DNA of 64,000 bases from a virus, in IMG/VR virus record IMGVR_UViG_3300031746_000007, positions 1 through 64,000 of that record. One strand, given 5' to 3'. A program made the position numbers and the translations under genes. The notes under the pieces were generated by a model. The model was given only the letters and a program-made list of their open reading frames with translations, was not told where the DNA came from and did not search any database. Below are positions 38,278-60,390 of this stretch, in pieces (positions within the stretch are counted from its first letter, which is position 1; each line of letters opens with the position of its first letter).

Positions 38278-39228
38278 CTAATCCGATCGCGTCCTACCGA
38301 GGTACTGCCGCGCGTAATCCTCGAGCGACGTCCCCGAATAGGTCGACTTCTTCTCCTTCTTCTCGGTGTACTCCCCGCGCTCCGCCTTCTTCGCAATCAC
38401 CTCGAGCCCGCGCCCCGGACGGTCCTGAGCTTGCACGATGTCGCGCGCTCGAATTTTGATGCTCCCGCTCGTCAGAACTGTGACCTCTTGCTCGCCTTCG
38501 TTGCCCGGATCGAAGCCGCCTTTCAGGCGATGCGTCATCACGATCGATTCTCGTGGCACCGTGACCTTGAAATAGAACCCGTTCCCTTCGTCGCCTCCGG
38601 CCGACGACAGCGCGGCGAACGTCTGCGCTACTTCTGGCGACTCTGAGAACGACGACAGAACGCCGGCGTCGAGGGTGATCTCGGCGTCCGGATCCTCTTG
38701 AACAGCCTGATATGCTTCGTCGTACATATACGCGAGCGACGAGTTTCCGCGAATGCCTCGCCACAGTTCTATCTTGGGCTTGTCGTACAGAGACTGCGAC
38801 ACAGCGGCGACGGCTGCGATGTCCCGCCGAACACCGTCATCTGCGAGCCCTTTGTTGAACGCACGGCTAACCTGCCCGACGTACTTACCCACATCCTTCA
38901 CGGCATACTCGATGTTGGCCGCCTTCTCGGCCGCGCGCGTGCTGCGTTCCAACTCCTTCTGAATCAACGCACCGCGATCGCCGTGCACCGCTTTCGCGCA
39001 CGCCGCCCGCATCGTCGCCGTCTCCGACGTCCCGGGGGACGCCCGCCAGCCATCCACCAAGCGCCACAACCGGGTCGAGTCACCGCCGGCGCGCGCGATC
39101 GCCTTGTCCGTGTTGCCCTTCTTCACGAGCCCGCGCAGCTCCTCGGGCTTCACCCAGTAGCGTTGCTTGTGCGCCTTCCCGAGACGCTCGACCACCTTCT
39201 CGATCGCGATGAGCCCGGAGCCGGCCAT
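38278..39228 (-). CDS. ADP-ribosyltransferase (R-S-E clade) with N-terminal tag
   Basis: ELWRG, LSSFSES..AQTFA, EQEVTV catalytic pattern; GGAGGAG RBS before ATG 39228. Confidence 0.7.
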   Translation of the reverse strand: MAGSGLIAIEKVVERLGKAHKQRYWVKPEELRGLVKKGNTDKAIARAGGDSTRLWRLVDGWRASPGTSETATMRAACAKAVHGDRGALIQKELERSTRAAEKAANIEYAVKDVGKYVGQVSRAFNKGLADDGVRRDIAAVAAVSQSLYDKPKIELWRGIRGNSSLAYMYDEAYQAVQEDPDAEITLDAGVLSSFSESPEVAQTFAALSSAGGDEGNGFYFKVTVPRESIVMTHRLKGGFDPGNEGEQEVTVLTSGSIKIRARDIVQAQDRPGRGLEVIAKKAERGEYTEKKEKKSTYSGTSLEDYARQYLGRTRSD

Positions 39229-39230
39229 GT

Positions 39231-39410
39231 TTACTCCTCCTCGCGAATGTCGCGCGGGGGCCACGGATCGTCGTCGAGGTCCGGTCCCGGCACCGGGCTC
39301 GGGGGTTCCCCGAACGGGGTCGGGAAGTCCGGACCGTCCATCGGCTCTTGCAGCTTCAGCTCGCGGCGAATGAGCGCGGCGAGCGCCTTCGCGTCAATCG
39401 GCTTTGTCAT
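39231..39410 (-). CDS. 59-aa acidic/Pro-rich protein (not in ORF track)
   Basis: GAGGAG RBS; MTKPIDAKALAALIRRELKLQEPMDGPDFPTPF..EEE*. Confidence 0.6.
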   Translation of the reverse strand: MTKPIDAKALAALIRRELKLQEPMDGPDFPTPFGEPPSPVPGPDLDDDPWPPRDIREEE

Positions 39411-39777
39411 TTTGCTCCTCGTGTGCGTCGTCGTGACACTCCTCGCAGACCGTCACGATGTTGCTCGGGTCGTTCGAATGCCCCTTGTTGCTGCGCAGCG
39501 CTCGACTCACGAGGTTCGGCGTCCCACCTTTGTGGTGCACGCTGAGCATCTTCTGACCGCCGCACTCCTTGCACTTCCACTCGTCCCGCCGGAACACACC
39601 GAGCACGAGCGACGGCGGGAGCCCGCCCTTACCACCGGTCGCGAGCGTGGCACCCTTCTCCTTCGCCTCTGCCTGCATCTTCGCGAGAGCCTTCTCCTCG
39701 TTCTGCGAGAGCTTGGGCTCCTCTTCTTTGGCGGGAGGTGTCCGGTTCTTCGCCAGCTTCACGACCGCTTCGCTCAT
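39394..39777 (-). CDS. HNH endonuclease
   Basis: VFRRDEWKCKECG..VHH..NIVTVCEECH. Confidence 0.8.
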   Translation of the reverse strand: MSEAVVKLAKNRTPPAKEEEPKLSQNEEKALAKMQAEAKEKGATLATGGKGGLPPSLVLGVFRRDEWKCKECGGQKMLSVHHKGGTPNLVSRALRSNKGHSNDPSNIVTVCEECHDDAHEEQNDKAD

Positions 39778-40199
39778 TGCAGCGTCACCTTCCCCGGCAT
39801 CTCCGGTACCTGGAACAACACGGGGTTCTTGTCTTCCGGCGGCGCCGAGATCTCGACGAGGCACCACGACGGACACTTTGCCGCCGCGATCTCCGCCGCA
39901 CTGCGGCAGCTGTCACACGCCCCGACGTCGGACACCTTGATCATCGGACCGTACTTCGTTGGGATCGTCGGCACCGTGCACGAACCATCCGGGTTCGACA
40001 CCATGATCTGCGCGACGAACTCGGGGTTGCGCTGCACCAGCTCGTCGAGCAACACGAGCACGCGAATCCGCACCGACGCCGGTCGACCGCACTGCTCGCA
40101 CCGCTTATTGAGAGCGGCGATATGCGTCTCGCGCGCTGTCATCTCGCCGCTCACGAACTTTCGAATGTGCTCCGGCGTCCGATTGTTCATCTTCTTCAT
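39774..40199 (-). CDS. hypothetical zinc-binding protein
   Basis: CEQC..CDSC; GGAGGAG RBS. Confidence 0.6.
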   Translation of the reverse strand: MKKMNNRTPEHIRKFVSGEMTARETHIAALNKRCEQCGRPASVRIRVLVLLDELVQRNPEFVAQIMVSNPDGSCTVPTIPTKYGPMIKVSDVGACDSCRSAAEIAAAKCPSWCLVEISAPPEDKNPVLFQVPEMPGKVTLQ

Positions 40200-40666
40200 C
40201 GTTTCGCTCCTCCTGCGAAAACAGGTTCACCGTAGATCTGACTCACCACTGACCAGCTCACAGCCATCGGACCGTGCCCGAGTCGCAACCCCCGATCATC
40301 GACGAACAAGTCGGCGATCGGTTTGCCTTGCGCCCCGTCGTCGATCGCATCGAACACCCCCGGCAGCTCCTTCGCGACAAAGTCGAGCATCTGTTGATAG
40401 CGCGCCTGGTTCAGAACCTTGTCGGCATCCCACGTTTTCTGGTGCACCTTTCGCACCCCCGCGCGCACCATAGGGTCGAGCGCCGCATCCTCGCGCAGCG
40501 CTCGGTTCGCTCGAGCGGAGTACAGTAGCAGACTGTGCCCGGCCGCCTTGAGAGACGCTAGCCCGGCCTTCGCCCCGGGTACGAACATGAGCCCCGACGT
40601 GACGTCGTCGTACCCGCGCCCGTGCGCGTCGACGACGGTCCCGTCGAAGTCGACAGCGATGAGCAC
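40196..40666 (-). CDS. HAD-superfamily phosphatase-like protein
   Basis: IAVDFDGT, LYSAR, GKPIADLFVDDR. Confidence 0.8.
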   Translation of the reverse strand: MLIAVDFDGTVVDAHGRGYDDVTSGLMFVPGAKAGLASLKAAGHSLLLYSARANRALREDAALDPMVRAGVRKVHQKTWDADKVLNQARYQQMLDFVAKELPGVFDAIDDGAQGKPIADLFVDDRGLRLGHGPMAVSWSVVSQIYGEPVFAGGAKR

Positions 40667-40667
40667 G

Positions 40668-41168
40668 TCATCCCCCGAATCGCTTGTTCTTCTTCGAAGG
40701 CTTGACCTCGGGAACGATCTCCGCGTTCTTCACCACGTCCCCGCTCGTCGTGAGGATGCCGACCTCTTCGGTCGCGTCCTTGCGCGAGGTCGGGTGCGTC
40801 ACCTCTTCGACCAGAACGGTCGGGACATTCTGCGCCACCGCCCGCACGACCGCCAGGAACAACCGATCCTTGACCTGTTGCTCCGCCGGCAGCTGCTCCC
40901 ACGGAACGAGACACGGATGCTCGAGCGCCTCCGGTCGTTTGGCCGGTCCGTACTTCCACCCGGCCTTGAGCTTGTGCTCCATCCATTCAAAGTGACTCTG
41001 CTCCGGCGACTTGCCGGGGTCGGCGATCGCCGACGTGACGCCGGCGATCGCGCTTTCCCGCTGCCATTCCGGAGCGGCGTCCCACGACGGGATAGTGTGA
41101 TCCCCGAGCGTCGTGCAGTAGGCACGGTTTGCTTCGTGAGCAATGCGCGCGATTTCTTCTGCGGTCAT
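40668..41168 (-). CDS. RyR-domain protein
   Basis: HFEWMEHKLKAGWKYG..EHPCLVPWEQLP..KDRLF. Confidence 0.85.
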   Translation of the reverse strand: MTAEEIARIAHEANRAYCTTLGDHTIPSWDAAPEWQRESAIAGVTSAIADPGKSPEQSHFEWMEHKLKAGWKYGPAKRPEALEHPCLVPWEQLPAEQQVKDRLFLAVVRAVAQNVPTVLVEEVTHPTSRKDATEEVGILTTSGDVVKNAEIVPEVKPSKKNKRFGG

Positions 41169-41177: not shown

Positions 41178-42929
41178 CTACTCTTCATACGACTCGGAAC
41201 CAGAAGTCGGCTCCTCGGGGTACTGTTCCTCGGGGTACTGTTCGGGACCGCCCGGCACCCCCTCGCCGCCGAGCATGCCCATCGCTTGCTGCATCATCGC
41301 TTGTTGCTGCCCTTGCGCCTCGGATTTGAGACGCGCGATCAACGCCTGCACGTCTTCGACGTCGTAGTATTCGGCGACGAACTGCACCGCGTGATCGAGG
41401 TCGAGCACACCCCCGGTGCGTGCGGCGATTGCCGCTCGAGTCGCCAGCTCGACGTCGGAGAGCAGCGGTTCGAAGTAGTGCGGCCACTGAATCGAGACCG
41501 AGCCACCCTTGCCGAGCTTCGGCTCGACGTAGCTCGTCTCGCCCGTCTCGGGGTCGATGACCTTGCGCTTCGGCAAGATCACGCCAGCGCGTACCGTCTC
41601 CCCGGTCAGGGGATCCGTGGTCTTCGTCTCCTTGAGCTTCTGAACCGCGGCGAGCATCATCTCCGCCAGAACGAGAACGAGCTTCTGCCCGTACTGCTCA
41701 CGCAGCACGTCGGCCTTCGCCAGCATCGACGAGAACGCGCGCTCGATCTCCGTCGCCGTGCTCCGCGACATATCCGGCCGCTCGAGCACGCACTGCGCAC
41801 TCTCGAGCGTGAACCCACGCAACTGACCAGCCAGGTCGAGAGCTGCCTTCGGACCGGAGCCGGAGATCTCGATGTAGCTGCTACTGCTCCCGGTCGGCAG
41901 CTTGATCGCGTTGTCGCTGCCCTTCTTGACGTCGGACATTTCGGCGTCGGTGATGAGGCTCAGCGTCGGATCGCAGTTCGCCACGATGCCCTTGTTGGCT
42001 TGTGCGATGAGAGCGTCGATCGCCGCGATCATCTCGTAGACGCCGTGACAGTCGGGGTCGCCGTCGACGTCGTCCTGCACCGGCAGGTTCTGCGCCCACA
42101 CCACCGGGCAGAACCCGAGCCCGTGCTCGACTACCGTCGACCCGACCGCCGCCCAATCCGGCTCGTCGCCGTCGCCGACCGGCACCGGGTTGAAAAGCAC
42201 GTCTTTCTCTTCGTCGATGATGCGCCGGTACCAGTACGCTTCCTCGCGCCACACGCCGGCAGCGTCGCGCTGCTCGACCGGGTACATGTAGCGCTTCTCG
42301 ATCGACTTGAGCTTGTGCGTCATCCGGTCGGCGAACGTCGGCTGCACCCACCGGGGGTCATGCACCTCGATGACGATCCTGCCTTCGACAAACTGGAACC
42401 CGACGCACGCTGAGCCCATCGCTCCGCCGTACTGCCGCGCCAAAAGCATGAGCGCCCACAACCGCCCCGAGTCGACGAGCGCCCCGAGATAAGCCTCGGT
42501 GTCGGGGTCAGACTCGACCTTCAGAGTCGGGTGTCGCTTCTCCGAGAAGAGCAAGCCGGTGAACCGGTCGACGATGACGCGCACCAGCGGGTATGGTGCC
42601 GAGGGTCGACGGAACTTGATCGGCATCGTCGAGCCCGCGTCGTAGAACCCGGGAGGGATAGTCCCCTGCGACGCGATCGCTTCCGTCTCAATCGGATCGC
42701 AGGCAGTCCCACCATTCCAGTCCACCCGCCGACCGCTGTATGTCTCGCACCGATGCCATGCCCACAGGTAGTTCAGGCGTTGTTGTCGAGGGCTGAGCCC
42801 GAGCCGGGCAACCCGATCGTTCGTTTGCTGCGCAGTCTCGGCAGCACCTACGCTCTTCAGCGTCCGCTGCGCCAATCCGCCCAACAACCTCCGGACCAAG
42901 CCCGGCTCGTAGCTCGTGCCGCTGGACAT
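41178..42929 (-). CDS. portal protein
   Basis: 583 aa after TerL; IVDRFTGLLF, HGLGFCPVVW, SIQWP motifs of SPP1-type portals. Confidence 0.85.
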   Translation of the reverse strand: MSSGTSYEPGLVRRLLGGLAQRTLKSVGAAETAQQTNDRVARLGLSPRQQRLNYLWAWHRCETYSGRRVDWNGGTACDPIETEAIASQGTIPPGFYDAGSTMPIKFRRPSAPYPLVRVIVDRFTGLLFSEKRHPTLKVESDPDTEAYLGALVDSGRLWALMLLARQYGGAMGSACVGFQFVEGRIVIEVHDPRWVQPTFADRMTHKLKSIEKRYMYPVEQRDAAGVWREEAYWYRRIIDEEKDVLFNPVPVGDGDEPDWAAVGSTVVEHGLGFCPVVWAQNLPVQDDVDGDPDCHGVYEMIAAIDALIAQANKGIVANCDPTLSLITDAEMSDVKKGSDNAIKLPTGSSSSYIEISGSGPKAALDLAGQLRGFTLESAQCVLERPDMSRSTATEIERAFSSMLAKADVLREQYGQKLVLVLAEMMLAAVQKLKETKTTDPLTGETVRAGVILPKRKVIDPETGETSYVEPKLGKGGSVSIQWPHYFEPLLSDVELATRAAIAARTGGVLDLDHAVQFVAEYYDVEDVQALIARLKSEAQGQQQAMMQQAMGMLGGEGVPGGPEQYPEEQYPEEPTSGSESYEE

Positions 42930-43373: not shown

Positions 43374-44828
43374 TCAACGCGACGTGAGATCGACACGCCC
43401 CGTCTGCATCTTCTTCGAACCCATGCGAGCGCCTTCTCGGGCAAACCAGCTCGCCATGAGCGTGTCGCCGGTGTGCGCGTTGGGGTCGAAGAACAGCATT
43501 TCTTGAATCCACTGCGCGACTTCGGGGTGCATCACACCCCCGCCGTCGTTCGGGATGATCCACTTCCCGTTGCTCATCTCGACCGCGATCGACTCGACAC
43601 CGAACTCCGGGCTCGCCTTGTTCTTGCCGGTCGTGAACGCCCGGATAGGGACCGCGCTGCCGGCGCGCGCGAACTGCAACAAGTAGTCCTGCGCCGCGTT
43701 GTTCTCGACGACCACAATCGAATTGTAGCGATGGTGTGTGTCGATAAGCCGGTTGACGATGTCCGGTCCCGCCCACTTGCCGGCGTCGATATTGATGAGC
43801 TGTCGGGATTCGTCCGGGTGCACGAAGATGGTAAACATCACCGTGCGACCGGCCGCCGCGTGCTTCTGCACCCCGAGGTCGACCCCCGTGAATGACCGCC
43901 CGCGAGTGACGCCGGCCATGATCGGCAAGAGCTTGAGCCCGCGCCCGCGCTCGAGACACAGATCGATCCAGGCTTGCTTGAACCGCGACTCGCTATCGTC
44001 GCGCGCCTGGCACATCATCTGCCGAGCGAACTCGAGCGGGCCCAGCTCGAGACGCCGCTCCTCGATGCGCGACTTCGGCCACCTCTCCGGCCAACGCGGC
44101 TCACCCGTCGAATCCATGACCGGATACCGGAGAGCCGTCCAGGTTGGTTGACGCGCGAACCGGTGCAACGAATCGTCGGGATGATACGCGTTGCCGACAA
44201 TCCACACCCGCGCGTCGCGCGTCAGTCGACCGATGAGCGTCGCGTGAATCCACTTCCAAAGGTCTTCGCGCGCCGCCGGCGTCCGACAGTTTTCATAGTC
44301 GAGGATGTCGTCGAAGATCAACAAGTCGATGCGTGCCCCGACTATGTTGCCGTGGATACCGCACGCCTGTAGCGAGGGGTCTTTGCCAACGACCGTGCGC
44401 TGCACGAACAAGTGATGCGACGTCCAGGGGTCGCCCTTCTTGAGGTGCGGGAACACCATCGCCAGCTCCGCCGAGCTTTCGATGTACTTCGCCACCGTCC
44501 GAACGATCTTCGCCGCCTGCTCGTGCGTGTTGCTGATCACGACGACGCGCGAATTCGGGTTACGCCCCAGCTCCCACAGCACGCGCCCGATCGAGACCTG
44601 TTGCGTCTTGCCGCCTTCGGTGTGGCTCCACAACAACAGTCGTCGATGCGACGACATGAGCCCTTGCCAGGCGACGTGCATCGGCGCCATCTCGATCGGC
44701 GCCCCCGTCATCTCGTCCTTGAGCACGAACTCCATGAAGGCAGAGGGGTCCACCCGCGCCGCTTGCGCGTGGATCTCCTGCGCCTGACGCAGTCGATCTA
44801 GGAACTCCTGACCGGCATCGTCGCTCAT
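43374..44828 (-). CDS. terL: terminase large subunit
   Basis: HTEGGKT Walker A, GARIDLLIFDD Walker B, GVDLG and GDTLMASW nuclease motifs; ATG 44828 overlaps upstream TGA. Confidence 0.9.
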   Translation of the reverse strand: MSDDAGQEFLDRLRQAQEIHAQAARVDPSAFMEFVLKDEMTGAPIEMAPMHVAWQGLMSSHRRLLLWSHTEGGKTQQVSIGRVLWELGRNPNSRVVVISNTHEQAAKIVRTVAKYIESSAELAMVFPHLKKGDPWTSHHLFVQRTVVGKDPSLQACGIHGNIVGARIDLLIFDDILDYENCRTPAAREDLWKWIHATLIGRLTRDARVWIVGNAYHPDDSLHRFARQPTWTALRYPVMDSTGEPRWPERWPKSRIEERRLELGPLEFARQMMCQARDDSESRFKQAWIDLCLERGRGLKLLPIMAGVTRGRSFTGVDLGVQKHAAAGRTVMFTIFVHPDESRQLINIDAGKWAGPDIVNRLIDTHHRYNSIVVVENNAAQDYLLQFARAGSAVPIRAFTTGKNKASPEFGVESIAVEMSNGKWIIPNDGGGVMHPEVAQWIQEMLFFDPNAHTGDTLMASWFAREGARMGSKKMQTGRVDLTSR

Positions 44829-45343
44829 CAGAACTCGTGACCGCAGTTCGGACACGTGGTCAGCTTGCCCTCGCGTGCCGTGAACGTCACCTCGCGCGTC
44901 GCGTGCGAAGCCTCCGCCGACGCCTCGCTCGCCGTCTTCTCTGCCGCCGAGCACAGCTTCGCAATGTCGGCCGCATCGAACCCGGTGCTCTCGAGCAACC
45001 CGTCCGCGGTCTCATTGATCTCCTGTAAGAGGTCGGCGAGCTGCGGTCGGTTCCATTCCGCGGTCTCCGCGCTCCGATTGAGAGCTACCCCGAGAGCGAT
45101 CGCCTTGCGGTCGTCGATGTCGAGGCGCACGATCTTGACGACCGTCCACCCCAGATCGCGCATGACCTGCAACCGACCGTTGCCGCCGATGACCCGCCCG
45201 GTCGACTTCTGCACGACGAGCGGCTCGACCTGCCCGAACTGCAACAGGCTCGCCTTGATCGCGGCAAGGTTGTTCGTCGGATGCTTCCGAGCGTTGCGCG
45301 GGTCTTCAGTCAGCGACCCGATCGGCATGACCTCGACGATCAC
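44828..45343 (-). CDS. ParB/Srx-like domain protein
   Basis: PRNARKH..IKASLLQFGQVEPLVV..IGGNGRL; C-terminal CPNCG. Confidence 0.85.
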   Translation of the reverse strand: MIVEVMPIGSLTEDPRNARKHPTNNLAAIKASLLQFGQVEPLVVQKSTGRVIGGNGRLQVMRDLGWTVVKIVRLDIDDRKAIALGVALNRSAETAEWNRPQLADLLQEINETADGLLESTGFDAADIAKLCSAAEKTASEASAEASHATREVTFTAREGKLTTCPNCGHEF

Positions 45344-48142: not shown

Positions 48143-48152
48143 GTCTCCTCCT

Positions 48153-51682: not shown

Positions 51683-51708
51683 GACCGCACCTCCTCACCA
51701 CAATCACT

Positions 51709-51743: not shown

Positions 51744-51750
51744 AGAGACG

Positions 51751-52029: not shown

Positions 52030-52032
52030 CGT

Positions 52033-52362
52033 TCAGCCCTCCTCCGCCATCCGCCGGCGAGCCGCGTGGAGCGCTCCCATCGGCGTCCCCTTCGTGGTGA
52101 GCAACCCGACCGACCGGCAGGCTTCGTGAGCCGCGGCGCCGCACGTCGTGCAGGGCTTCCGGCGCATCCACTCTTCCGGAGCGTACCGAAGAAAGGTCTC
52201 GGTGCCGTCCGACCCAACCCGGTACATCTCGAATCGAGTCGTTTTCTTCGACCCCTTGAACCCCTCGACCCGCTTCACTTTGAACGTCGCACCCTCGAGC
52301 GACGTGAACGTGAAGCACCCGGTCACCTCGAGCCACCCGTAACCCCTCGTTCGCATCGTCAT
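52033..52362 (-). CDS. hypothetical with C-terminal zinc finger
   Basis: CTTCGA..C..H. Confidence 0.55.
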   Translation of the reverse strand: MTMRTRGYGWLEVTGCFTFTSLEGATFKVKRVEGFKGSKKTTRFEMYRVGSDGTETFLRYAPEEWMRRKPCTTCGAAAHEACRSVGLLTTKGTPMGALHAARRRMAEEG

Positions 52363-52373
52363 CGCACCCTCCT

Positions 52374-52550
52374 TCAAGCGGCCTTCTTCACCGGCTCCGC
52401 GTCCCCGTAGCAGGGGAGGTCGCAGAGATCTTCCGCCGCGTGTTTCCAGCAGTACCAGCTGCCCTTCTCAGCCCGGCAATCGCAACCGGGGTGCCCGCAG
52501 CTCGGTGCCCCAACCATCCGGAGCCCGCTCTTCTTCGTTCCTTTCTTCAT
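52374..52550 (-). CDS. small Cys-rich protein
   Basis: CGHPGC..YCWKH. Confidence 0.5.
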   Translation of the reverse strand: MKKGTKKSGLRMVGAPSCGHPGCDCRAEKGSWYCWKHAAEDLCDLPCYGDAEPVKKAA

Positions 52551-52574
52551 CGCGAGCCTCCTTCCCACGATGCA

Positions 52575-52609
52575 AGTGTCTCATTATCCCGTACGAATGG
52601 CAATAGAAA
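52575..52609 (-). promoter_or_regulatory. early promoter repeat 4
   Basis: TTGCCA-N17-GACACT. Confidence 0.7.
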
Positions 52610-52644
52610 ACGACAAGCCGCGGTCGATTCTTTGACGCTGTGCG

Positions 52645-52944
52645 TCAGGCAGCCGCAGCGGTGAAGCCACACACCCCGGCAGTCGAATCACCCATCCCGA
52701 GCATCGCAGCCGCGGCAGTCTCGGCAGCCTCGGCGGCAGCCACCGCAGCCTCGGCCGCCTTCTTGGCGACGGCGAGCATGGCGGCGACCGCATACTTGGC
52801 TTTGTCCGAGCCGTCCGACTCCTCGGCAGCGGTGCCGGCGGCATCCGCGGCGAACGCCGAAGCCGACGACGACTCGCGAGCGATGTAGGCCAGGGCTTTC
52901 ATCGCCTCACCCATCGACGATCCGCTCTTCTTCTTGCCCGCCAT
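52645..52944 (-). CDS. Ala-rich hypothetical protein
   Basis: AAGGAGG RBS after promoter repeat. Confidence 0.55.
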   Translation of the reverse strand: MAGKKKSGSSMGEAMKALAYIARESSSASAFAADAAGTAAEESDGSDKAKYAVAAMLAVAKKAAEAAVAAAEAAETAAAAMLGMGDSTAGVCGFTAAAA

Positions 52945-52967
52945 GACACCCTCCTTCCTACAGGCAG

Positions 52968-53003
52968 AGTGTCTCATTCTCCCGTACGATTGTCAAGAGA
53001 ATT
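52968..53003 (-). promoter_or_regulatory. early promoter repeat 5
   Basis: TTGACA-N17-GACACT; overlaps TAA of upstream gene. Confidence 0.75.
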
Positions 53004-53277
53004 AGCGCTGTTGCTGGTATCCGATCGCCTCGAGCGCAGCGACCTCGAGCAGCGCCCACTCCTCCGGCGTCTCCGGTCCCTCCGGCTTGCGCAACGCCGC
53101 GAACCGGTCGTCGCCCATGAGCTTGCGCCGCATCGCGCCCGATCGGCGCGCGAGCCAGACCTCCTCGGCGTGATCGTGAATTCGCTGGAACCGAAAGTCG
53201 AGCTGGTCCCATACCGTCGTCATCCGCCCGATCGACGCCATGTTGTCGACGACCTTGTTGCCGCAGTCGCTTCCCAT
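53002..53277 (-). CDS. hypothetical protein
   Basis: GGAGG RBS. Confidence 0.55.
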   Translation of the reverse strand: MGSDCGNKVVDNMASIGRMTTVWDQLDFRFQRIHDHAEEVWLARRSGAMRRKLMGDDRFAALRKPEGPETPEEWALLEVAALEAIGYQQQR

Positions 53278-53287
53278 CGCACCCTCC

Positions 53288-53770
53288 TCATCCGCTCGAG
53301 TCGTAGCTCGAGATCTCGCCGCACTTCTTGCAGCGGGTCACGTGCCAACACATCCCGAAGTGTTGCACCCCGAGCTTCCGCGCCTCGTCCCCCGAGATCT
53401 CTTCGAAGTCGTGCTCGCATGCGAGCGTGTGCCAGCAACCCTGGCACCGCGCCGGGTCGGTCACGTTCTCGTGATCAGGCGACCCGTACTCGATCAGGTG
53501 CGCCCGGCAGCTCTTGTGCAGCCGGAGCTTCGCAGCCGCAGCCTCAAGCTCAGCCGTGACACCCTCGGGCGTCAGCGAGATCTTGCCGCTCTTCACGTCG
53601 TCGATGAACTTGCGCCACTCGTCATCCCAGCCCTCGATCCCGCGCACCCACTTGGCGCGACACGTGAGCTTGAAAAGCTCTTGCTCCTTCTGGTAGACGG
53701 CATACTCAGCCGCCCGCTTCGCCTCGAGCGCTCGTCGCTCCGCGGCTTTCATCCTCGGCTTTCGTGGCAT
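53288..53770 (-). CDS. hypothetical protein, Cys/His-rich C-terminus
   Basis: GGAGG RBS; CEHDF..CKKCG. Confidence 0.6.
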   Translation of the reverse strand: MPRKPRMKAAERRALEAKRAAEYAVYQKEQELFKLTCRAKWVRGIEGWDDEWRKFIDDVKSGKISLTPEGVTAELEAAAAKLRLHKSCRAHLIEYGSPDHENVTDPARCQGCWHTLACEHDFEEISGDEARKLGVQHFGMCWHVTRCKKCGEISSYDSSG

Positions 53771-53781
53771 CACACCCTCCT

Positions 53782-54171
53782 TTAGAAGCTGAAGTCGTGA
53801 TACTTGCCGCGGCGCCCGATGCTGAGCCCTTTGCCGCCGCCGCGGAGCTTATTCAGCCGGCCGGTCACCGGGTTCTCGACCATCTCCCCCCACTTCCCGC
53901 TCGGAGCCCGCTTGAAGTAGAAGACCCGTCCGTCCGGGTTCGGGGTGAAAACGTAGTCCTGACACTCGCTCATCCCGTTTTTGTCGACCCGCTTGGCGTC
54001 ATCTTCGACGACCTTGACGACCACCGAGCCCTTGTCGCGAAGGATGTCGACGATCGTCCCGGCGTCGCGGTCCGACCAGCCGCACATCGTGACCCCCATC
54101 CCGATCTCGGGCTCGGGCTGTCCGATGACGCTCCTTGAAATGATGTCGTTGGTGATGCTGCCGAAAGCCAT
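53782..54171 (-). CDS. conserved phage hypothetical protein
   Basis: PEIGMGVT..SDR; GGAGG RBS. Confidence 0.65.
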   Translation of the reverse strand: MAFGSITNDIISRSVIGQPEPEIGMGVTMCGWSDRDAGTIVDILRDKGSVVVKVVEDDAKRVDKNGMSECQDYVFTPNPDGRVFYFKRAPSGKWGEMVENPVTGRLNKLRGGGKGLSIGRRGKYHDFSF

Positions 54172-54180
54172 GATGCCCTC

Positions 54181-54378
54181 CTAGTTCTTGCGGATGGTAT
54201 CGACGAAAGCGCGAATCGTCTCACCGAGCACCGTGTCATCGACCCCGCCGGCGACTGCCGCCATGCCGACTTCGAAGACCGTGCAAATGTCCATCATGTC
54301 GATCTGAATCCCCGAGCACGTCGCGTAGTAGGCTTTACTGACGCGCGCCTCGGCTGCCCTGGTTTCCTTCTTTGTCAT
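54181..54378 (-). CDS. hypothetical protein
   Basis: AAGGAGG RBS after repeat. Confidence 0.6.
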   Translation of the reverse strand: MTKKETRAAEARVSKAYYATCSGIQIDMMDICTVFEVGMAAVAGGVDDTVLGETIRAFVDTIRKN

Positions 54379-54399
54379 CGCTGCCCTCCTTCGATTGTC

Positions 54400-54435
54400 A
54401 TCGTCTCATTCTCCGAGACGATTGTCAAGAGAATT
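54400..54435 (-). promoter_or_regulatory. early promoter repeat 6
   Basis: TTGACA-N17-GACGAT. Confidence 0.75.
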
Positions 54436-54734
54436 TAGCGGAGGTAGGTGCCCCCGTACTCGGTCACCCCGAGCGCCCCCGTGAAGATGTTGCCGCGAGC
54501 GTGCTTCGCCGGCTTCTTCCACCCATCGGCCTTGAGCACGTCGCCGTTCGTGGTGTCGATGAAGCAGTGCACCGACCGGCTGTCGTCCTCGCGAACGACC
54601 CGGATGTAGCGCCGACCGGGGTCGAGCTTCAGCACCGGGCGCGTCAGGTTCGGATAGCGTTCGTGACCTTTGTCGACGATCGCCTGTGCTTTCGCGAGCC
54701 AGGTCTCGAGCGCCGCTGTGAACTTGGGATCCAT
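54435..54734 (-). CDS. conserved phage hypothetical protein
   Basis: GRRYIRV..SVHCFID..GDVLKADGWKKPAKHARGN, a widespread phage family signature. Confidence 0.7.
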   Translation of the reverse strand: MDPKFTAALETWLAKAQAIVDKGHERYPNLTRPVLKLDPGRRYIRVVREDDSRSVHCFIDTTNGDVLKADGWKKPAKHARGNIFTGALGVTEYGGTYLR

Positions 54735-54756
54735 TGTTCTTTCCTCCTCGATTGTC

Positions 54757-54792
54757 ATCGTCTCATTCTCCGAGACGATTGTCAAGAAAATT
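54757..54792 (-). promoter_or_regulatory. early promoter repeat 7
   Basis: TTGACA-N17-GACGAT; 40 bp identical to repeat 6. Confidence 0.75.
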
Positions 54793-54804
54793 GTCAAAAA
54801 AAGG

Positions 54805-55029
54805 TCAGTCGGTCCTGACCTGCCAGGTGATGTTGAACCCATCCTCGCGCGCGACCTTGTCGGCGAGCCGCTCGCCCGCCGGCGTGAGCTTGCCCCACTC
54901 GTCGACGAGCCCGGCTCGAGCCCACTTGCCGGTGAAGTCGGCGATCGGCAGCGTCCCGCGAAAGGCTCGCATGACGACGATCATCGATCGTTGCGTGCCG
55001 GTCAGTTTGTCGGGGTCGATGAAATTCAT
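54805..55029 (-). CDS. hypothetical protein
   Basis: Coupled to upstream gene (ATGA). Confidence 0.55.
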   Translation of the reverse strand: MNFIDPDKLTGTQRSMIVVMRAFRGTLPIADFTGKWARAGLVDEWGKLTPAGERLADKVAREDGFNITWQVRTD

Positions 55030-55256
55030 GGTCTACTCCCCCGTGCTTTCCAGAACGGTTCGAACGCGAACGGAATGTCGGCCCAGAGCTTGCCGTCGAC
55101 CGCGCTCCTGAAATGGGTGGCGCCGTGAATCTCCCCGGAGCCGATATGCTCGGCGATGATCTTCTCGGCGATCGGCGTCGCTTCGACGTATAGGTCCGAC
55201 TCGTGCGAATCGATCTTGCACCCCGCGCTCACCAGAGCTTCATACACACTTGCCAT
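55026..55256 (-). CDS. conserved phage hypothetical protein
   Basis: IDSHESDLYV..WADIPFAF. Confidence 0.6.
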   Translation of the reverse strand: MASVYEALVSAGCKIDSHESDLYVEATPIAEKIIAEHIGSGEIHGATHFRSAVDGKLWADIPFAFEPFWKARGSRP

Positions 55257-55269
55257 GATCTCCCCCTTC

Positions 55270-55458
55270 TTATGTCGCCGAGAGCCAGCTCTCGGCTGCT
55301 TTCGGCGTCGTCGGAATCGGCCCGACGTCGAGGTCGATGTCGACCCCACCGCACTTCGGGCAGCCCTCGCTCGAGGCGCGCGTCGCGCCGGCGACAGTCT
55401 TGAAAACGTGCCCGCACTCGAGGCACTTGTAACCGCTGGTGTGCTTCGTGGTTTTCAT
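55270..55458 (-). CDS. small zinc-ribbon protein
   Basis: YKCLECGHVF..CPKCGG. Confidence 0.6.
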   Translation of the reverse strand: MKTTKHTSGYKCLECGHVFKTVAGATRASSEGCPKCGGVDIDLDVGPIPTTPKAAESWLSAT

Positions 55459-55482
55459 CGCTGGTCTCCTTCCCACGACGCT

Positions 55483-55518
55483 ATCGTCTCATTATCCCTT
55501 CCGTGTGTCAAGAGAATT
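55483..55518 (-). promoter_or_regulatory. early promoter repeat 8
   Basis: TTGACA-N17-GACGAT. Confidence 0.75.
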
Positions 55519-55521
55519 CGA

Positions 55522-55824
55522 CTAGACCCTCGGTGCCATCAGGTCGCGCGCGAGCATCATGCACCACTTCGACCGGTTCAACATTTGCCGCATCCGCTCC
55601 CGATCGGCCGGCGTCGAACCCGGGACCGCGACCAATTCCTGCACGTCGCTCGCGATGCTCATCGCGAGCATGACCACGTCGCGCGCGTCGGTGAAGTCGG
55701 TCATCGTGCAGCCGGTCTTGAAATCGGCGTTCGTCGCGCCGAACATCGTGCGCTCACGCGCCTGCCGGCGCTCCGCCTCGAGCGCGTCAAGCTCGTACGC
55801 CGCCACCTGTTTCTCCCGTGCCAT
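55522..55824 (-). CDS. hypothetical protein
   Basis: AAGGAGG RBS. Confidence 0.6.
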   Translation of the reverse strand: MAREKQVAAYELDALEAERRQARERTMFGATNADFKTGCTMTDFTDARDVVMLAMSIASDVQELVAVPGSTPADRERMRQMLNRSKWCMMLARDLMAPRV

Positions 55825-55837
55825 CGTCGCCTCCTTC

Positions 55838-56176
55838 TCAGTCGCAGTTGCACATCACCAGGCACCGCGCGTAGTCGATACCCGTCTCCTCGTGCAGCGT
55901 CGCAGCCGCGTCACCGGGGCGACCGATGTCACCCGGGTCACGAGCGCGGTCGGAGAGCCGGCGGAACTCGGCGTTGTAGGCATCCTCTGCGATCTCCTCT
56001 GCCATCCGCGCCTTGATCGCCGCTGCTTTGAGATCGACGAACCGGCTTTCCGCTTTCGCGGCGACTTCCATGACCTTCTTGTAGCGCGTCTCCGCGCGGT
56101 TCATCCGCGTCCACGCCTTACCCGCTTTGCGCTCCGCTCTGTTGCGGTGCGCTTCCAACCTCTCGAGCTTCGTCAT
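55838..56176 (-). CDS. coiled-coil hypothetical protein
   Basis: GAGGAGG RBS after repeat. Confidence 0.6.
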   Translation of the reverse strand: MTKLERLEAHRNRAERKAGKAWTRMNRAETRYKKVMEVAAKAESRFVDLKAAAIKARMAEEIAEDAYNAEFRRLSDRARDPGDIGRPGDAAATLHEETGIDYARCLVMCNCD

Positions 56177-56194
56177 GTTGCCTCCTCGATTGTC

Positions 56195-56230
56195 ATCGTC
56201 TCATTCTCCGTGCCGAGTGTCAAGAGAATT
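56195..56230 (-). promoter_or_regulatory. early promoter repeat 9
   Basis: TTGACA-N17-GACGAT. Confidence 0.75.
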
Positions 56231-56234
56231 CGAC

Positions 56235-56705
56235 CTACCCGCCGGTGATCTTCATCCCCTTCGACCGGCGCTTCAGATCTTCGAAGAGCTTCCGGTTCGG
56301 GTGAAGCTCCCAGAGCTTCGGCTCGTTCACCGGTCCCCAGACCATCGTGCGGCAGAGGGTTTTGCGAATCTCGTCCTTGGTGTACGTGTGGCTCTCGTGG
56401 TACTCGCCGCCGGGCGGCAGCGTCAGGTCGACGACTTTGCCGTTCCAGGTCAGCCAGGCGTGCTCGATCGGGATCCCGAGCAGGCTCGCTCCCGAGGCAT
56501 ACCCCTCGTGGTACTCGATGCCGGGCAGCTCCGTGTAGAGCATGAACCGCGCGCAGTTCTCGTAGCAGCTTTTCATCTTCGGCACGAACCCGATGCGCCG
56601 AATCTCCGCCTTGATCTCCGGCGGAAGGTGCGACCACGGCACCGGACACCAGCCGCGGGTCGAGTACAACTCGATCCGCCGGTCAGTCGTCAATCGCTTC
56701 CTCAT
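56235..56705 (-). CDS. hypothetical, papain/transglutaminase-like C-H-D pattern
   Basis: SCYENC..YHEGYA..PIEHAWL..VVDLT. Confidence 0.55.
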   Translation of the reverse strand: MRKRLTTDRRIELYSTRGWCPVPWSHLPPEIKAEIRRIGFVPKMKSCYENCARFMLYTELPGIEYHEGYASGASLLGIPIEHAWLTWNGKVVDLTLPPGGEYHESHTYTKDEIRKTLCRTMVWGPVNEPKLWELHPNRKLFEDLKRRSKGMKITGG

Positions 56706-56728
56706 CGCGCCCTCCTTCCTACGATGAG

Positions 56729-56764
56729 AGTGTCTCATTCTACCGTCCGTGTGTCAAGAGAATT
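56729..56764 (-). promoter_or_regulatory. early promoter repeat 10
   Basis: TTGACA-N17-GACACT; overlaps TAA of upstream gene. Confidence 0.75.
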
Positions 56765-57989
56765 AGGCGGCGACCGGCACCTCCTCGACCTTCCCGACCG
56801 CCTTCACCCGGGTCACCACCGTCTCGGTGATGCCGTTCCGGGTCGCGTGTTTCTTGACCGTGGCCTTCACTTTCCAGGTCTCCCCGACCTCCCCGAGCGT
56901 CCCGCCGGCGGAGGCGAACCAGACCGCCACGTTGCCCTCGGGAGTCAGGAACCGGTGGATCCGGGTCAGCCCGTACATCCCCTCGACGTCGAAGCGGTCG
57001 ATCAAGGTCAGGGTCAGGTCGAGCCGCTTGCCGGGCTCACCGAAGGCTACCGAATTCTCGAGCCGCTTGCGCTTGATCTCGTTCCCGACCTCCTTGTTGT
57101 AGGCGGAGACGATCGAGGCGGCGATCCCGCCTTCCTTGTACCCCACGTGACCGAACCGGGCGACCAGCCGCACGTTCCAGAGGTAGTCGCTCGAGGCGTT
57201 CTCGGTGAGCCCGACCGCCCACTCGGCGGCAGCCCCCGCGAGTTTCTCATCCTCGGGAGTAGGCACCGGGCGCGAACCCGGATTCTCGCGCCAGTGGCGG
57301 AGCAGGTAGCTGTCGGGGTTCAGCGTCGACCAGACCGTGTCAGCCGTCGCGGTCCGCGGAGGGTTCGAATCCCGTGCAGCCCCTCGGCTCATCCACCCGT
57401 CCCGGCGGATGATGCAAGCGGTCATGGCCAAGAAATCGGCGAGCGGGACCACGTTGTACCCACCGCGACCGCCGCCCCCGAAATCCTCGGCCTCGCGGCA
57501 GAGAGCGTCGATTTCGAAGAGCACCTCGGCCCCCGCCGCGAGAGCTTCCGGGCTCTTGTGGCCCAGGAAGTCTTTCAGGCAGGAGCGGCCGACGAGCTTG
57601 AAGGTCCCGTCGTCGTGGGCGACCACGAAGACCTCGAGCCGCGAGCGGGTCAGGCGGCAGTGGTCGCAGGCGATCGGCGCGGTCCGGTAGCCCTCGGGGA
57701 CCTCCTCACCCGGCACCGACCGGATGACGTTGCCCTCACCGAGACTGGCGACGACGGCGATGAGGCGCCACCCTTCGAACTTGGGTGCCTTGCCCTCGAC
57801 GTCGACCTCGCAGAACTTCATGCTCGGGCGTTTCTTGGTGTCCGGGTCGACCTCGCCATACTCCTTGACGAAGGGCTCCCCGACCGTCCAGGTCGGAGGC
57901 TCGACCCCGAGCTTCGTCGCGCGCTTCACCAGCTTGCCGAGCCCGGCGACCAGGCGCGAGACGTTGAATTCGGGAACCGTGACTTTCAT
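56763..57989 (-). CDS. conserved phage protein, Zn site + C-terminal OB-fold-like domain
   Basis: CDHC..VGRSCLKDF; GNVAVWFAS..VKATVKKH..TVVTRV. Confidence 0.65.
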   Translation of the reverse strand: MKVTVPEFNVSRLVAGLGKLVKRATKLGVEPPTWTVGEPFVKEYGEVDPDTKKRPSMKFCEVDVEGKAPKFEGWRLIAVVASLGEGNVIRSVPGEEVPEGYRTAPIACDHCRLTRSRLEVFVVAHDDGTFKLVGRSCLKDFLGHKSPEALAAGAEVLFEIDALCREAEDFGGGGRGGYNVVPLADFLAMTACIIRRDGWMSRGAARDSNPPRTATADTVWSTLNPDSYLLRHWRENPGSRPVPTPEDEKLAGAAAEWAVGLTENASSDYLWNVRLVARFGHVGYKEGGIAASIVSAYNKEVGNEIKRKRLENSVAFGEPGKRLDLTLTLIDRFDVEGMYGLTRIHRFLTPEGNVAVWFASAGGTLGEVGETWKVKATVKKHATRNGITETVVTRVKAVGKVEEVPVAA

Positions 57990-58007
57990 CTCCCTCACCT
58001 CAAGAGT

Positions 58008-58043
58008 ATCGTCTCATTATCCTGTACGGTTGTCAAGAGAATT
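58008..58043 (-). promoter_or_regulatory. early promoter repeat 11
   Basis: TTGACA-N17-GACGAT. Confidence 0.75.
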
Positions 58044-58054
58044 CGCAACAAAGA

Positions 58055-58252
58055 TCAACCCGCAGCCGGCTTCACCCTCGGCTCGACCACGGCAATGACT
58101 TCGAACACACCGCTCCCGCGGTCTACCGTGCGATAGATGCACATCGGGCAGTTGTGGAACTTGACGCTCTTGCGCGCCTCTCGGAGACACGCCGCCTTGC
58201 TCGTGCGCGGGTAGATCGAAGTACCGTAAAAGTACAACGCCTTGTTTTTCAT
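58055..58252 (-). CDS. hypothetical protein
   Basis: Single gene between repeats 11 and 12. Confidence 0.55.
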   Translation of the reverse strand: MKNKALYFYGTSIYPRTSKAACLREARKSVKFHNCPMCIYRTVDRGSGVFEVIAVVEPRVKPAAG

Positions 58253-58269
58253 CGCCTCACCTCAAGCTT

Positions 58270-58305
58270 AGAGTCTCATTATTCGGTACGGTTGTCAAGA
58301 GAATT
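58270..58305 (-). promoter_or_regulatory. early promoter repeat 12
   Basis: TTGACA-N17-GACTCT. Confidence 0.75.
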
Positions 58306-58311
58306 CAAACC

Positions 58312-58656
58312 TCAATCGTCGCGATCGGCCAGTCTGTGTGCGACCCGCTCCCGCAGCCACATCGGCACCTCGCTCGCGTACACCCGCAACCGCGGTGTAT
58401 TCAGCGCTCGAGCCGCGCGCATCGTGTCCCAGAACCACTCACTCGCCCACTTGCGCCCTTTGCCGTACGTGGGATCGTGCCGGTTGATGCGGTCGTGAAC
58501 CCCCTCGCGGAATTCCGCGAGCACCGTCGCACCCGTGACCGGCGCCCACCCCGTGAGCCCGTGGTCGTAGGTGCGCGCGGGGTCGACCGCTTTGACCGCG
58601 GCGACGTACGCTTTGAGCGACACCGAGTGACCATTTCCGAGTCGGATGGTTTTCAC
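58312..58656 (-). CDS. hypothetical protein
   Basis: AAGGAGG RBS, GTG start overlapping upstream stop. Confidence 0.6.
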   Translation of the reverse strand: MKTIRLGNGHSVSLKAYVAAVKAVDPARTYDHGLTGWAPVTGATVLAEFREGVHDRINRHDPTYGKGRKWASEWFWDTMRAARALNTPRLRVYASEVPMWLRERVAHRLADRDD

Positions 58657-58859
58657 GAAGCACCTCCTTTTTTTCGCAAAGAGTGCCCGACGCTCGGCTT
58701 CTCGCCGACCACCCTCACGACGCGGATGCCGGTCCATCCGTACGCATGCGTCAACTCGTCGACCCGTTTGCGAGCGTCGGCTTCCAGAGAATTGCCCCAC
58801 ACACTGTGCACCACGTTCTGCGCGTCTACGACGCAATGCCAAACACCACTCGTTCTCAT
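58653..58859 (-). CDS. hypothetical protein
   Basis: AAGGAG RBS. Confidence 0.5.
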   Translation of the reverse strand: MRTSGVWHCVVDAQNVVHSVWGNSLEADARKRVDELTHAYGWTGIRVVRVVGEKPSVGHSLRKKGGAS

Positions 58860-58909
58860 GGGTCTCCTTCACGAACGTACCCTAAAACAGCCAGACCAAT
58901 CACACCCTC

Positions 58910-59131
58910 CTAGCTGAGTGACACCGGGCGCGAATCGGTCTCGAGCATTCGGTAGTTGACCGGCTCGTCGCTCGTGAGAACGACGAAGTCCGAAGGCATG
59001 AACCATCGCATGAGCAGCTCGACTCCGGCGCGGGTCGCCTCTTCGAAGGTAGAGAACGCGCACCCGTTTGAGCACGCCGTCTCCTTCGTGCTGCCCGTAC
59101 CGCCTCCGTAAACGCCAACCTTGAACGACAT
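58910..59131 (-). CDS. conserved phage hypothetical protein
   Basis: NGCAFSTFEEA..LLMRW..DEPVNY. Confidence 0.6.
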   Translation of the reverse strand: MSFKVGVYGGGTGSTKETACSNGCAFSTFEEATRAGVELLMRWFMPSDFVVLTSDEPVNYRMLETDSRPVSLS

Positions 59132-59164
59132 CGCAGGCTCCTTTCCGTTTCTCCCCACGATCGG

Positions 59165-59199
59165 ATGGTCTCATTATCGTGTACGATTGTCAAGAAAAT
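59165..59199 (-). promoter_or_regulatory. early promoter repeat 13
   Basis: TTGACA-N17-GACCAT. Confidence 0.75.
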
Positions 59200-59236
59200 A
59201 GAGACACGAATCGACCGGGCTCGAGCGGAGCCCGCG

Positions 59237-59422
59237 CTACTTGATCGGCTTCGTCAGCTTGACCAGCCGCGCAGCCGGGCTCGAGCGCCCGGGAGGCAGC
59301 GACGCCTTCAACCGCGCCGCGCTCGTGAGCACCCTCTTGCCTTGCGCGTCGTACTCGATGAACTCCCCGGCGTCAGCCAGCGACAGCAACTCGGCGCCCT
59401 CGTCGACCTGCGGCTTCGTCAT
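59237..59422 (-). CDS. 61-aa protein coupled to GNAT gene
   Basis: ATGA overlap with GNAT stop. Confidence 0.55.
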   Translation of the reverse strand: MTKPQVDEGAELLSLADAGEFIEYDAQGKRVLTSAARLKASLPPGRSSPAARLVKLTKPIK

Positions 59423-60390
59423 AGTCCTAGCCGTCCCTTCGCCACTTCGAACCCGGGGTCGCCGTCGCGCAACGACAGCTCGCCTTGCCACGACGTGTCA
59501 CCGAGCAGGAAGTCCTTGCCGACCGGTTTGCCATCGACCTTGATCGATGCGACCTCCCACGCCCGATCGGCGTGTCGATCGGCGAGCGCCCGCGCCTCGG
59601 CCGGCGGCATCCCCGCCTGCTCGAGCACCTTCGGGAATTCCTGCCGCACCTGATCGGCGTGCTCCTTGTTCCAGTTGAACCCGAACCGCGCCCACGTGTA
59701 GCGACCGACACTCCCGGCCGCCATTGTCACCTTCGACACCCCGAGCTTGCGGTACTCCTCGAAAGCGTTGCGCGTGATCTCGGCACCGATGCCCTTGCCC
59801 TGTTGATCCTCGTCCAGAAACATCCCGACGTGGTGCACCGTCAACGCACCGGACGAATCGCGCGCGAACTGCCGCGTGATCGTGCCGACCTGTTGACCGC
59901 TCCGATCGTGCAGCGTCGCCGCCACTAGCACCGCCGGAGAATACTCCACCGTCGACCGCGGAGCCCCGAGATTCGAAAGCGCCTGATAGCGAATCGTCTC
60001 CTCGTCCAACATCTCCTCACCAGGATTGTCGGCTGCGAACTTCGCTCGCACCGTGTCCATAGCCATGCGAACCGTGCTCTCGTCGTGCGTTACGACCACG
60101 CGCTTGTCGGCACGCTCGTCGTCGACGTGGTCTATCTTCACCGCGTAGCCGGGCGGGGGGCGCATGGTCTGCCGCAACTCCGCCGGCGTGATCTTCTTCT
60201 GGAACACGCGCTCGACGTTCTCATCGAAGTGTTCTGGAAACTCCTCGGGGTTCTTCGACTCGACCGCCGCCGAGCCCTCGCCCGTCAGCTGATCCTTGAA
60301 CCCGCCTTCGCGAATCCAGAACCGCTGCGTGTGCGTCCGCCCCGACCGCGACACCTCACGCTCGACTGCGATCAAGCCTTCACGTGGCAT
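59419..60390 (-). CDS. GNAT acetyltransferase with N-terminal tag
   Basis: FLDEDQQGKGIG acetyl-CoA motif, GRYTWARFGF; TAGGTT-N6-ATG. Confidence 0.75.
   Translation of the reverse strand: MPREGLIAVEREVSRSGRTHTQRFWIREGGFKDQLTGEGSAAVESKNPEEFPEHFDENVERVFQKKITPAELRQTMRPPPGYAVKIDHVDDERADKRVVVTHDESTVRMAMDTVRAKFAADNPGEEMLDEETIRYQALSNLGAPRSTVEYSPAVLVAATLHDRSGQQVGTITRQFARDSSGALTVHHVGMFLDEDQQGKGIGAEITRNAFEEYRKLGVSKVTMAAGSVGRYTWARFGFNWNKEHADQVRQEFPKVLEQAGMPPAEARALADRHADRAWEVASIKVDGKPVGKDFLLGDTSWQGELSLRDGDPGFEVAKGRLGL

Follow-up and report, generated by a model that had tools for sequence, protein, structure and literature searches.

DarB of phage P1 is a textbook packaged anti-restriction protein, and MuF polymorphic toxins have reportedly been described by Jamet et al. 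in 2017. The first 30 residues of P1 DarB are enough to direct a reporter into P1 capsids (PMC9024508), and the internal proteins of phage T4, including Alt, carry capsid-targeting sequences (CTS) (PMC3012670, PMC9024508). In addition, fusions of MuF to effectors have been described (PMC5512222, PMC9503650), and phage polyvalent proteins combine ADP-ribosyltransferase (ART), GNAT, kinase, InPase, zincin metallopeptidase, and DarB-like methylase-helicase domains in a head-gene context with predicted injection (PMC5512222). Here, we describe a short conserved module, hereafter the tag, that opens three unrelated proteins of an uncultured, actinophage-like phage. The DNA analyzed is a stretch of 64,000 nucleotides (the window), the first 64 kb of the 84,668-bp IMG/VR viral record IMGVR_UViG_3300031746_000007, which is linear, has an estimated completeness of 78% and a GC content of about 64%. 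The phage is temperate and encodes an integrase (46019-47050), and the minus strand carries nearly all genes of the window.

One module on three unrelated proteins

Regular-expression and hidden Markov model (HMM) scans in six frames recover exactly three copies of the tag, in the window as well as in the whole record. The first copy, MAGSGLIAIEKVVERLGKAHKQRYWVKPEELRGLVKK, comprises residues 1 to 37 of P0001, an R-S-ExE ART (39118-39228, minus strand; HMM E value of 1.8e-16, match at 39222). The second comprises residues 1 to 39 of the HExxH protein P0002 (49628-49744, plus strand; E = 1.4e-17, match at 49640) and the third residues 1 to 37 of the GNAT P0003 (60280-60390, minus strand; E = 1.1e-18, match at 60390). 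Nothing precedes the tag in any of them. The three open reading frames (ORFs) and their N termini read as given in a preliminary description of this DNA, with which the translations agree, and its statement that the proteins are unrelated past the tag is borne out by the remainders of P0001 to P0003, which fall into different BLAST clusters. HMM scans detected no further weak copies in the window, in MuF, or in the portal.

Comparison of 25 core codons between the copies at 49.6 and 60.3 kb gives 9 unchanged codons, 13 whose differences are all synonymous, and 3 with a conservative replacement (I/V, R/E, and I/V). The 13 synonymous-only codons indicate that the peptide rather than the DNA is conserved and that it is under purifying selection, as had been proposed from the many synonymous differences between these two copies. 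The same 13 differences rule out a recent DNA duplication or gene conversion of tag copies.

The module is about 35 to 45 residues long, with the consensus [KR]-x-G-L-V-x-V-x-[KR]-x-V-x-R-x-G-K-T-[HF]-x-Q-x-[FY]-W-V-[KR]-P-x-[DE]-V. It is predicted by AlphaFold2 (AF2) to fold as a beta-hairpin followed by a short helix or third strand, and the hairpin proposed earlier appears in the models of both P0001 and P0002. In P0001, strands are placed at residues 7-15 and 18-26 and a helix at 28-36, with mean predicted local distance difference test (pLDDT) values of 86 to 93 per 10-residue block over residues 11-40; in P0002, the hairpin strands span residues 9-17 and 23-31 and the helix 32-41, which is the sole confident region of that model. 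The hairpin has conserved hydrophobic residues on each face (L6 and W25 on the first; V7, V9, V13, F/H20, F/Y24, and V26 on the second), which suggests that it packs against a partner. The conserved polar residues are K/R11, R15, G17, K18, Q22, and K/R27.

Carriers of the tag in protein and genome databases

Ten tag-only queries against Pfam-A 2025 and NCBIfam 20.0 returned nothing at an E value of ≤10 except a chance match to Laminin_G_3 (E = 0.045). The tag profile reached a best E value of 0.17 against PDB sequences, and PHROGs and the ESM Atlas yielded nothing specific for the tag. On these searches, together with whole-protein comparisons to Pfam, a known motif in disguise was rejected. 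Judged by sequence comparison, the tag is uncatalogued in Pfam, NCBIfam, and PDB, and it may have been described earlier under one of the 40 LPD numbers of PMC5512222.

A word-indexed search with the tag alone found orthologous GNATs, the Zeta-toxin kinase P0007, and P0008, a metagenomic relative of P0002 that has the same tag and middle domain and no peptidase. A profile of eight tags was then compared with 1.84 billion representative proteins at a cutoff of E ≤ 1e-3. Fifty-two clusters of 95 to 1,662 amino acids (aa) carry the tag, one of which (P0049) is a repeat artifact, leaving 51 representatives. The first tag starts at or before residue 15 in 34 of them, at residues 16 to 50 in 11, and later in 6, and 7 of the 51 have two or three copies. 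Pfam domains on the carriers are DRAT (5), ADPrib_exo_Tox (4, a tally not resolved per protein), Zeta_toxin (3), PARP (3), and Sod_Fe_C (2), with InPase, PI3_PI4_kinase, Peptidase_Mx, and ART found once each. The cargo segments after or between tags form 27 BLAST clusters, many without known identity. A search of protein databases with a tag HMM had been put forward as a check of the preliminary description, with N-terminal position, diverse cargo, and head-module linkage as the expected outcome: the tag lies within the first 50 residues in 45 of the 51 representatives, the 27 cargo clusters are diverse, and the linkage to head modules is described below. The tag is thus portable and sits on interchangeable enzymes of about 27 cargo groups rather than being confined to one family.

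Internal copies stand at the boundaries between enzyme units, as in the orders InPase-tag-ART-tag, Peptidase_Mx-SOD-tag-PI3/4-kinase, and HAD-zincin-tag-ART. Carriers with two or more domains are P0015 (InPase and ART), P0019 (peptidase, SOD, and kinase), and P0269 (HAD, zincin, and ART). Tags of low GC content are preceded by a leader of 25 to 35 residues, with a conserved stretch [LI]-x-K-[SAG]-x-[KR]-x-G-L-V before the hairpin, which may be a cleavage site after the Lys. Such leaders are seen in P0014, P0015, P0027, P0029, P0038, P0045, and P0054 to P0058, and the window copies are leaderless.

Tag patterns were also scanned in genomes and metagenomes. Tag loci are few in IMG/VR, a single one was found in 185,579 GTDB species genomes, and five were found in JGI metagenome contigs, which indicates that the module is rare; a second tag pattern gave no loci in the GTDB genomes. 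The tag spans phages of Actinobacteria-like, Bacillota, Thermus, and gammaproteobacterial hosts.

Tagged genes lie beside portal and MuF genes

Among named phages, which were detected with an HMM of 65 tags, Bacillus phage YungSlug encodes an 870-aa “PARP polymerase” and Lysinibacillus phage LysYB2 an 872-aa tagged PARP protein. Both have the tag at the very N terminus (E = 2e-16 and 4e-15, respectively), and both genes lie directly upstream of those for the portal, protease, and major capsid protein (MCP). Gene 3 of Thermus phage Cumys (E = 1e-13) directly follows the portal and a MuF-type minor head protein. In Thermus phage Lalka27a, the tag (E = 2e-8) is found at about residues 86 to 113 of a 2,074-aa DarB-like methylase-helicase. 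In this DarB-like gene (L006, 8758-9100), a proline-rich extension with two PKPKPQ..PTLWEAA copies precedes the tag, and it may be a leader or reflect an annotated start that is too far upstream.

Metagenomic loci show comparable arrangements. We observe the order large terminase (TerL), portal, and tagged polyvalent protein in L008; portal, MuF, and tagged protein in L011 and L055; two tagged genes, portal, protease, and MCP in L015; a tagged gene, a 91-aa ORF, and the portal in L019 and L020; and two tagged genes near a head protein in L018. Tagged proteins are located beside an SNF2-type helicase in L009, L010, and L017, and three tagged genes lie within 3.7 kb in L016. When head adjacency is taken as a position within about three genes of the portal, MuF, TerL, or a head protein, 8 of 13 independent lineages have tagged genes in such a context (binomial P of about 8e-6 at an assumed chance background of 10%). 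The linkage to the head module that had been anticipated is therefore found in the named phages as well as in metagenomic loci, with portal and MuF as the neighbors. Several tagged genes in a single genome are common: three in the window and in L016, two each in L015, L018, and L021, and two to four in L009. Downstream of the SNF2-type helicase of L009 (4010-13073), four consecutive genes encode a PARP-type 919-aa protein, a kinase-like protein, a 341-aa protein, and a 1,133-aa protein. Their tag E values of 6e-11, 0.009, 0.006, and 1e-7 correspond to two clear N-terminal tags and two weak ones.

We also mapped 80 IMG/VR loci around relatives of the window MuF, using the window’s own proteins. 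Seven tagged ORFs are present in 6 of these 80 loci, all seven on the MuF strand. Between portal and MuF, two of these ORFs are found in L021 and one each in L100 and L027, the latter immediately preceding MuF, like in the window. The tagged ORF is the next gene after MuF in L050 and L055, and in L096 it is located between TerL and portal. Portal proteins of the tag-bearing relatives are 35 to 57% identical to that of the window phage, and MCPs are 61 to 78% identical. This placement within the head genes of relatives indicates that the interval from portal to MuF is a variable slot that often holds tagged effectors.

When the window genome is compared with the two tag-bearing Thermus phages, a baseplate wedge protein is all that is common to both, and one short stretch of 49 residues is shared with Lalka27a alone. 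No conserved partner gene of the tag emerges beyond these among the three genomes.

The tagged genes of the window and their surroundings

P0001 (38278-39228, minus strand) consists of the tag, a helical domain, and an R-S-ExE ART domain, and its gene immediately precedes MuF in the head operon. The 11 members of its family share an invariant YRG, S-x-S, and E-x-E, and its AF2 model has a pLDDT of 83. In fold searches against the PDB, the best neighbors are ART toxins, all with E values above 0.1. A viral fold library yields a 1,390-aa “head morphogenesis” (MuF) fusion (E = 1.6e-6) and, weakly, VIP2/ART proteins of actinophages (E values from 0.03 to 2). The label of R-S-E ART given to P0001 at the outset is upheld by this invariant pattern, by ADPrib_exo_Tox among the carriers, and by the matches to ART-toxin, MuF-fused, and VIP2 folds. 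A Shine-Dalgarno sequence, GAGGAGGAG, stands 5' of the P0001 ATG, and a 59-aa ORF adjoins upstream without a gap. The MuF/SPP1 gp7-like head morphogenesis protein P0009 (37333-38274, minus strand; phrog_2468, E = 3.7e-4) starts 4 nucleotides (nt) past the P0001 stop and has 86 homologues, several of them with PF04233, in keeping with the earlier placement of P0001 next to MuF.

The gene order on the minus strand is TerL, portal, RyR-domain protein, sugar-isomerase-like gene, HNH endonuclease, 59-aa ORF, P0001, MuF, second HNH endonuclease, and, further on, MCP. The SPP1 gp6-like portal (41178-42929, minus strand; phrog_104) has homologues with PF05133, and the MCP (30578-31990, minus strand) matches phrog_1357 (E = 4e-10). 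A RyR-domain protein (40668-41168, minus strand; Pfam E = 5.7e-9) occupies the slot between portal and MuF, and a counterpart with 59% identity is found in L021 (1992-2462) in the same slot as the tagged effectors. It is followed by the sugar-isomerase-like gene (40196-40666, minus strand; phrog_1238). Two HNH endonuclease genes (39394-39876 and 36929-37396, both minus strand) are inserted in the head module and flank the pair of P0001 and MuF on each side. TerL (43374-44954, minus strand; phrog_38, E = 2.8e-59) has no tblastn relatives at E ≤ 1e-20 among 50,697 GenBank phage records, which places the phage in a lineage without cultured relatives among these records.

P0002 (435 aa; 49628-50935, plus strand) is composed of the tag, a middle domain (EYVTVHH...GLSRGTYV), and a HExxH zincin-like C terminus, and it is the second gene of a three-gene island. 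It had been described as an ART-like protein with a HExxH peptidase. The HExxH motif is present, with weak zincin matches (ATLF, E = 0.0035; phrog_7153, E = 0.0042), and the ART-like nature of the middle domain could not be verified, the AF2 model having a pLDDT of 49 outside the tag. The island (48495-51189) is the only plus-strand operon and lies near the integrase. Its first gene, P0270 (378 aa; 48495-49631, plus strand), overlaps the P0002 start and has a P-loop (GGCAAGKG). Its N terminus, MADFREELHPRDRGRF, carries a different short motif, ELHPRDRGRF, which occurs once in the genome. P0270 has no Pfam or PHROG matches, and the idea that it is the same cargo as the tagged Zeta kinase P0007 under another tag was rejected, since the two match with an E value of only 0.049. 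The third gene encodes P0271, a small acidic protein of 97 aa (50896-51189, plus strand).

P0003 (59419-60390, minus strand) consists of the tag and a GNAT acetyltransferase domain, an assignment that stands with 21.5 bits for Acetyltransf_1 (cutoff of 20.7) and an E value of 7e-5 for Acetyltransf_10. It is the fourth and last gene of a cassette that begins at a promoter repeat at 61265-61313, with the next repeat copy at 59151-59199. About 15 copies of this repeat, 49 to 61 nt in length, are distributed over positions 47599-63394 and split the early region into small gene cassettes. The repeat resembles a sigma-70 promoter, and its minus strand has TTGACA separated by a spacer of about 17 nt from GAGAATGAGAC, which is followed by a Shine-Dalgarno sequence.

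Comparison with described systems

The signals of T4 and P1 and the tag are alike in being short N-terminal peptides on otherwise unrelated proteins, ARTs included. P1 DarB and the Lalka27a carrier are both DarB-like methylase-helicases, and the role proposed for the tag is likewise head loading for coinjection. However, direct reading of the P1 DarB N terminus, MNKLSMGVFRCSSVSEILKYIRAITSHRAP, reveals no similarity to the tag, and P1 was not among the tblastn matches of three tag variants; identity of the tag with the DarB signal is rejected on the basis of this unrelated N terminus. The CTS of T4 is an amphipathic peptide of about 10 residues that is removed during maturation at an L/I-x-E site of the prohead protease, whereas the tag is a predicted hairpin of 35 to 45 residues without a conserved protease site. 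A T4-like L-x-E site inside the tag was likewise discarded, since position 10, where its Glu would fall, is variously E, Q, K, V, or I in 65 tags. In addition, the tag is also internal and repeated and occurs in unrelated phage lineages, in contrast to the lineage-specific signals of T4 and P1. As far as sequence can tell, the tag is without relation to the targeting sequences of either phage.

Like MuF polymorphic toxins, the tag brings interchangeable toxin or enzyme domains, ARTs above all, into connection with SPP1 gp7/MuF. MuF has a tagged gene as its immediate neighbor in the window, L027, L050, L055, and Thermus phage Cumys, and P0001, whose ART resembles MuF-fused ARTs, is located in the head module between portal and MuF. 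Unlike in those toxins, P0002 and P0003 lie outside the head module, and PF04233 is found neither in P0001 to P0003 nor in the 51 carriers, MuF being a separate neighboring gene. The link between tag and MuF is one of gene neighborhood only, and the tag would act noncovalently.

The tagged carriers share the domain repertoire, head-gene context, and predicted injection of polyvalent proteins (PMC5512222), and the multitag proteins of 900 to 1,660 aa are polyvalent proteins. The window proteins differ in having one or two domains each, as solo effectors: P0001 and P0003 have a single enzyme domain, and P0002, set against the polyvalent hallmark of at least two disparate domains, has a zincin-like motif and an unverified second domain. 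The tag itself has no matches to the polyvalent LPD families in Pfam. It behaves like the T4 CTS, the P1 DarB signal, and MuF fusions yet has the defining feature of none of them, and it belongs with polyvalent proteins.

Possible roles of the tag

We consider it evenly balanced whether the tag is a portable, noncatalytic adaptor that marks effectors as cargo of the portal/MuF vertex; their incorporation into virions, a receptor, and their ejection are what we infer. The cargos (ART, PARP- and DRAT-like, Zeta kinase, GNAT, lipid-kinase-like, and DarB-like proteins) have as their common denominator not a substrate but an effector class, the polyvalent or head-packaged phage enzymes (PMC5512222, PMC9503650). 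Taken together with the portal/MuF linkage, this makes a head-cargo address the most economical explanation, and since the cargos include small-molecule enzymes, delivery is a likelier common need than a macromolecular target. Tagged proteins would be made alongside portal and MuF, and the hairpin would hold them inside the procapsid as the noncovalent equivalent of covalent MuF-toxin fusions. They would then exit along with the DNA to act on the next host ahead of phage gene expression, and in large polyvalent proteins the same module would open each enzyme unit. Two analogies may be drawn: the Lalka27a carrier is DarB-like and P1 DarB is packaged via an N-terminal signal, and the ART of P0001 resembles those fused to MuF.

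Several observations weigh against such a role. Only P0001 of the three window genes lies in the late head operon, while P0003 ends a cassette of the repeated sigma-70-like early promoter and P0002 is on the opposite strand near the integrase. The share of related MuF neighborhoods with a tagged gene is low (the 6 of 80 loci above), and none of 206 portal or MuF homologues contains the tag. No virion proteomics literature was found on YungSlug, LysYB1/2, Cumys/phiMa, or Lalka. Finally, the tag is about 40 to 50% identical even where the portal, MuF, and capsid proteins of two phages have no BLAST match to each other. A signal that a fast-evolving phage receptor reads would not be expected to be so conserved, and a universal ligand such as nucleic acid or a self-contained fold would fit this conservation better. 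A head-cargo address independent of lineage, with the hairpin being read in Herelleviridae, Thermus myoviruses, and this phage alike by some feature that is conserved in the portal/MuF vertex, or by the packaged DNA, is possible, though we regard it as doubtful.

The same conservation, across four host groups whose head proteins lack detectable similarity, would suit an intracellular targeting or binding domain that tethers the enzymes, injected or newly made, to one highly conserved ligand, for instance nucleic acid (DNA or RNA), the ribosome, or RNA polymerase. The tag is basic, with conserved R15, K18, and K/R27, the head operon contains only one of the three window genes, and RNA polymerase and ribosomal proteins are known targets of T4 ARTs (PMC5512222, PMC9503650). 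We nevertheless judge such a tether unlikely: small-molecule cargos (Zeta-type kinases, InPase, and SOD) need no macromolecular tether, the strong positional link to portal and MuF would go unexplained, and the tag shows no similarity to nucleic-acid- or ribosome-binding families in Pfam, NCBIfam, or PDB. The internal copies, standing exactly at unit boundaries and often after a zincin peptidase, draw attention to another function, that of a junction or processing cassette cut by a head protease or by a zincin in cis, or else of a folding or oligomerization unit, any effect on packaging being secondary. The possible cleavage site that follows the low-GC leader would fit processing, and the conserved hydrophobic residues on both hairpin faces would fit a unit that has to pack. 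However, the tag begins by residue 15 in the window proteins, as it does in 34 of 51 representatives, so that there is nothing to remove; the Glu expected of a T4-type L-x-E site varies, and most carriers have no peptidase domain, which leaves a cassette of this kind quite unlikely.

Very improbable, in our view, is a role without any delivery, in which the tag binds a common phage inhibitor or chaperone that silences toxic enzymes in the producer cell or the lysogen. The cargos are toxin-like (ART, Zeta kinase, and GNAT), the phage is temperate, and the small acidic protein P0271 follows P0002, all of which would be in line with such a handle. However, the other tagged loci have no conserved small partner gene, the window genome shares with both Thermus phages only the baseplate protein, besides the short stretch in Lalka27a alone, and the linkage to head genes would have no explanation.

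Implications

Phage proteins that travel in the head and act before phage genes do, such as anti-restriction proteins, ARTs, and toxins, are hard to spot from sequence, and the loading signals described so far are few and lineage specific: the T4 CTS, the N-terminal 30 residues of P1 DarB, and covalent fusion to MuF. If the tag is indeed a head-cargo address, it would provide a handle for cataloguing injected effectors that is recognizable from sequence alone, and it would be a candidate noncovalent route into the portal vertex. It might also become a tool for bringing foreign proteins into many capsids. The cargos make up a list of candidate host-takeover or counter-defense enzymes.

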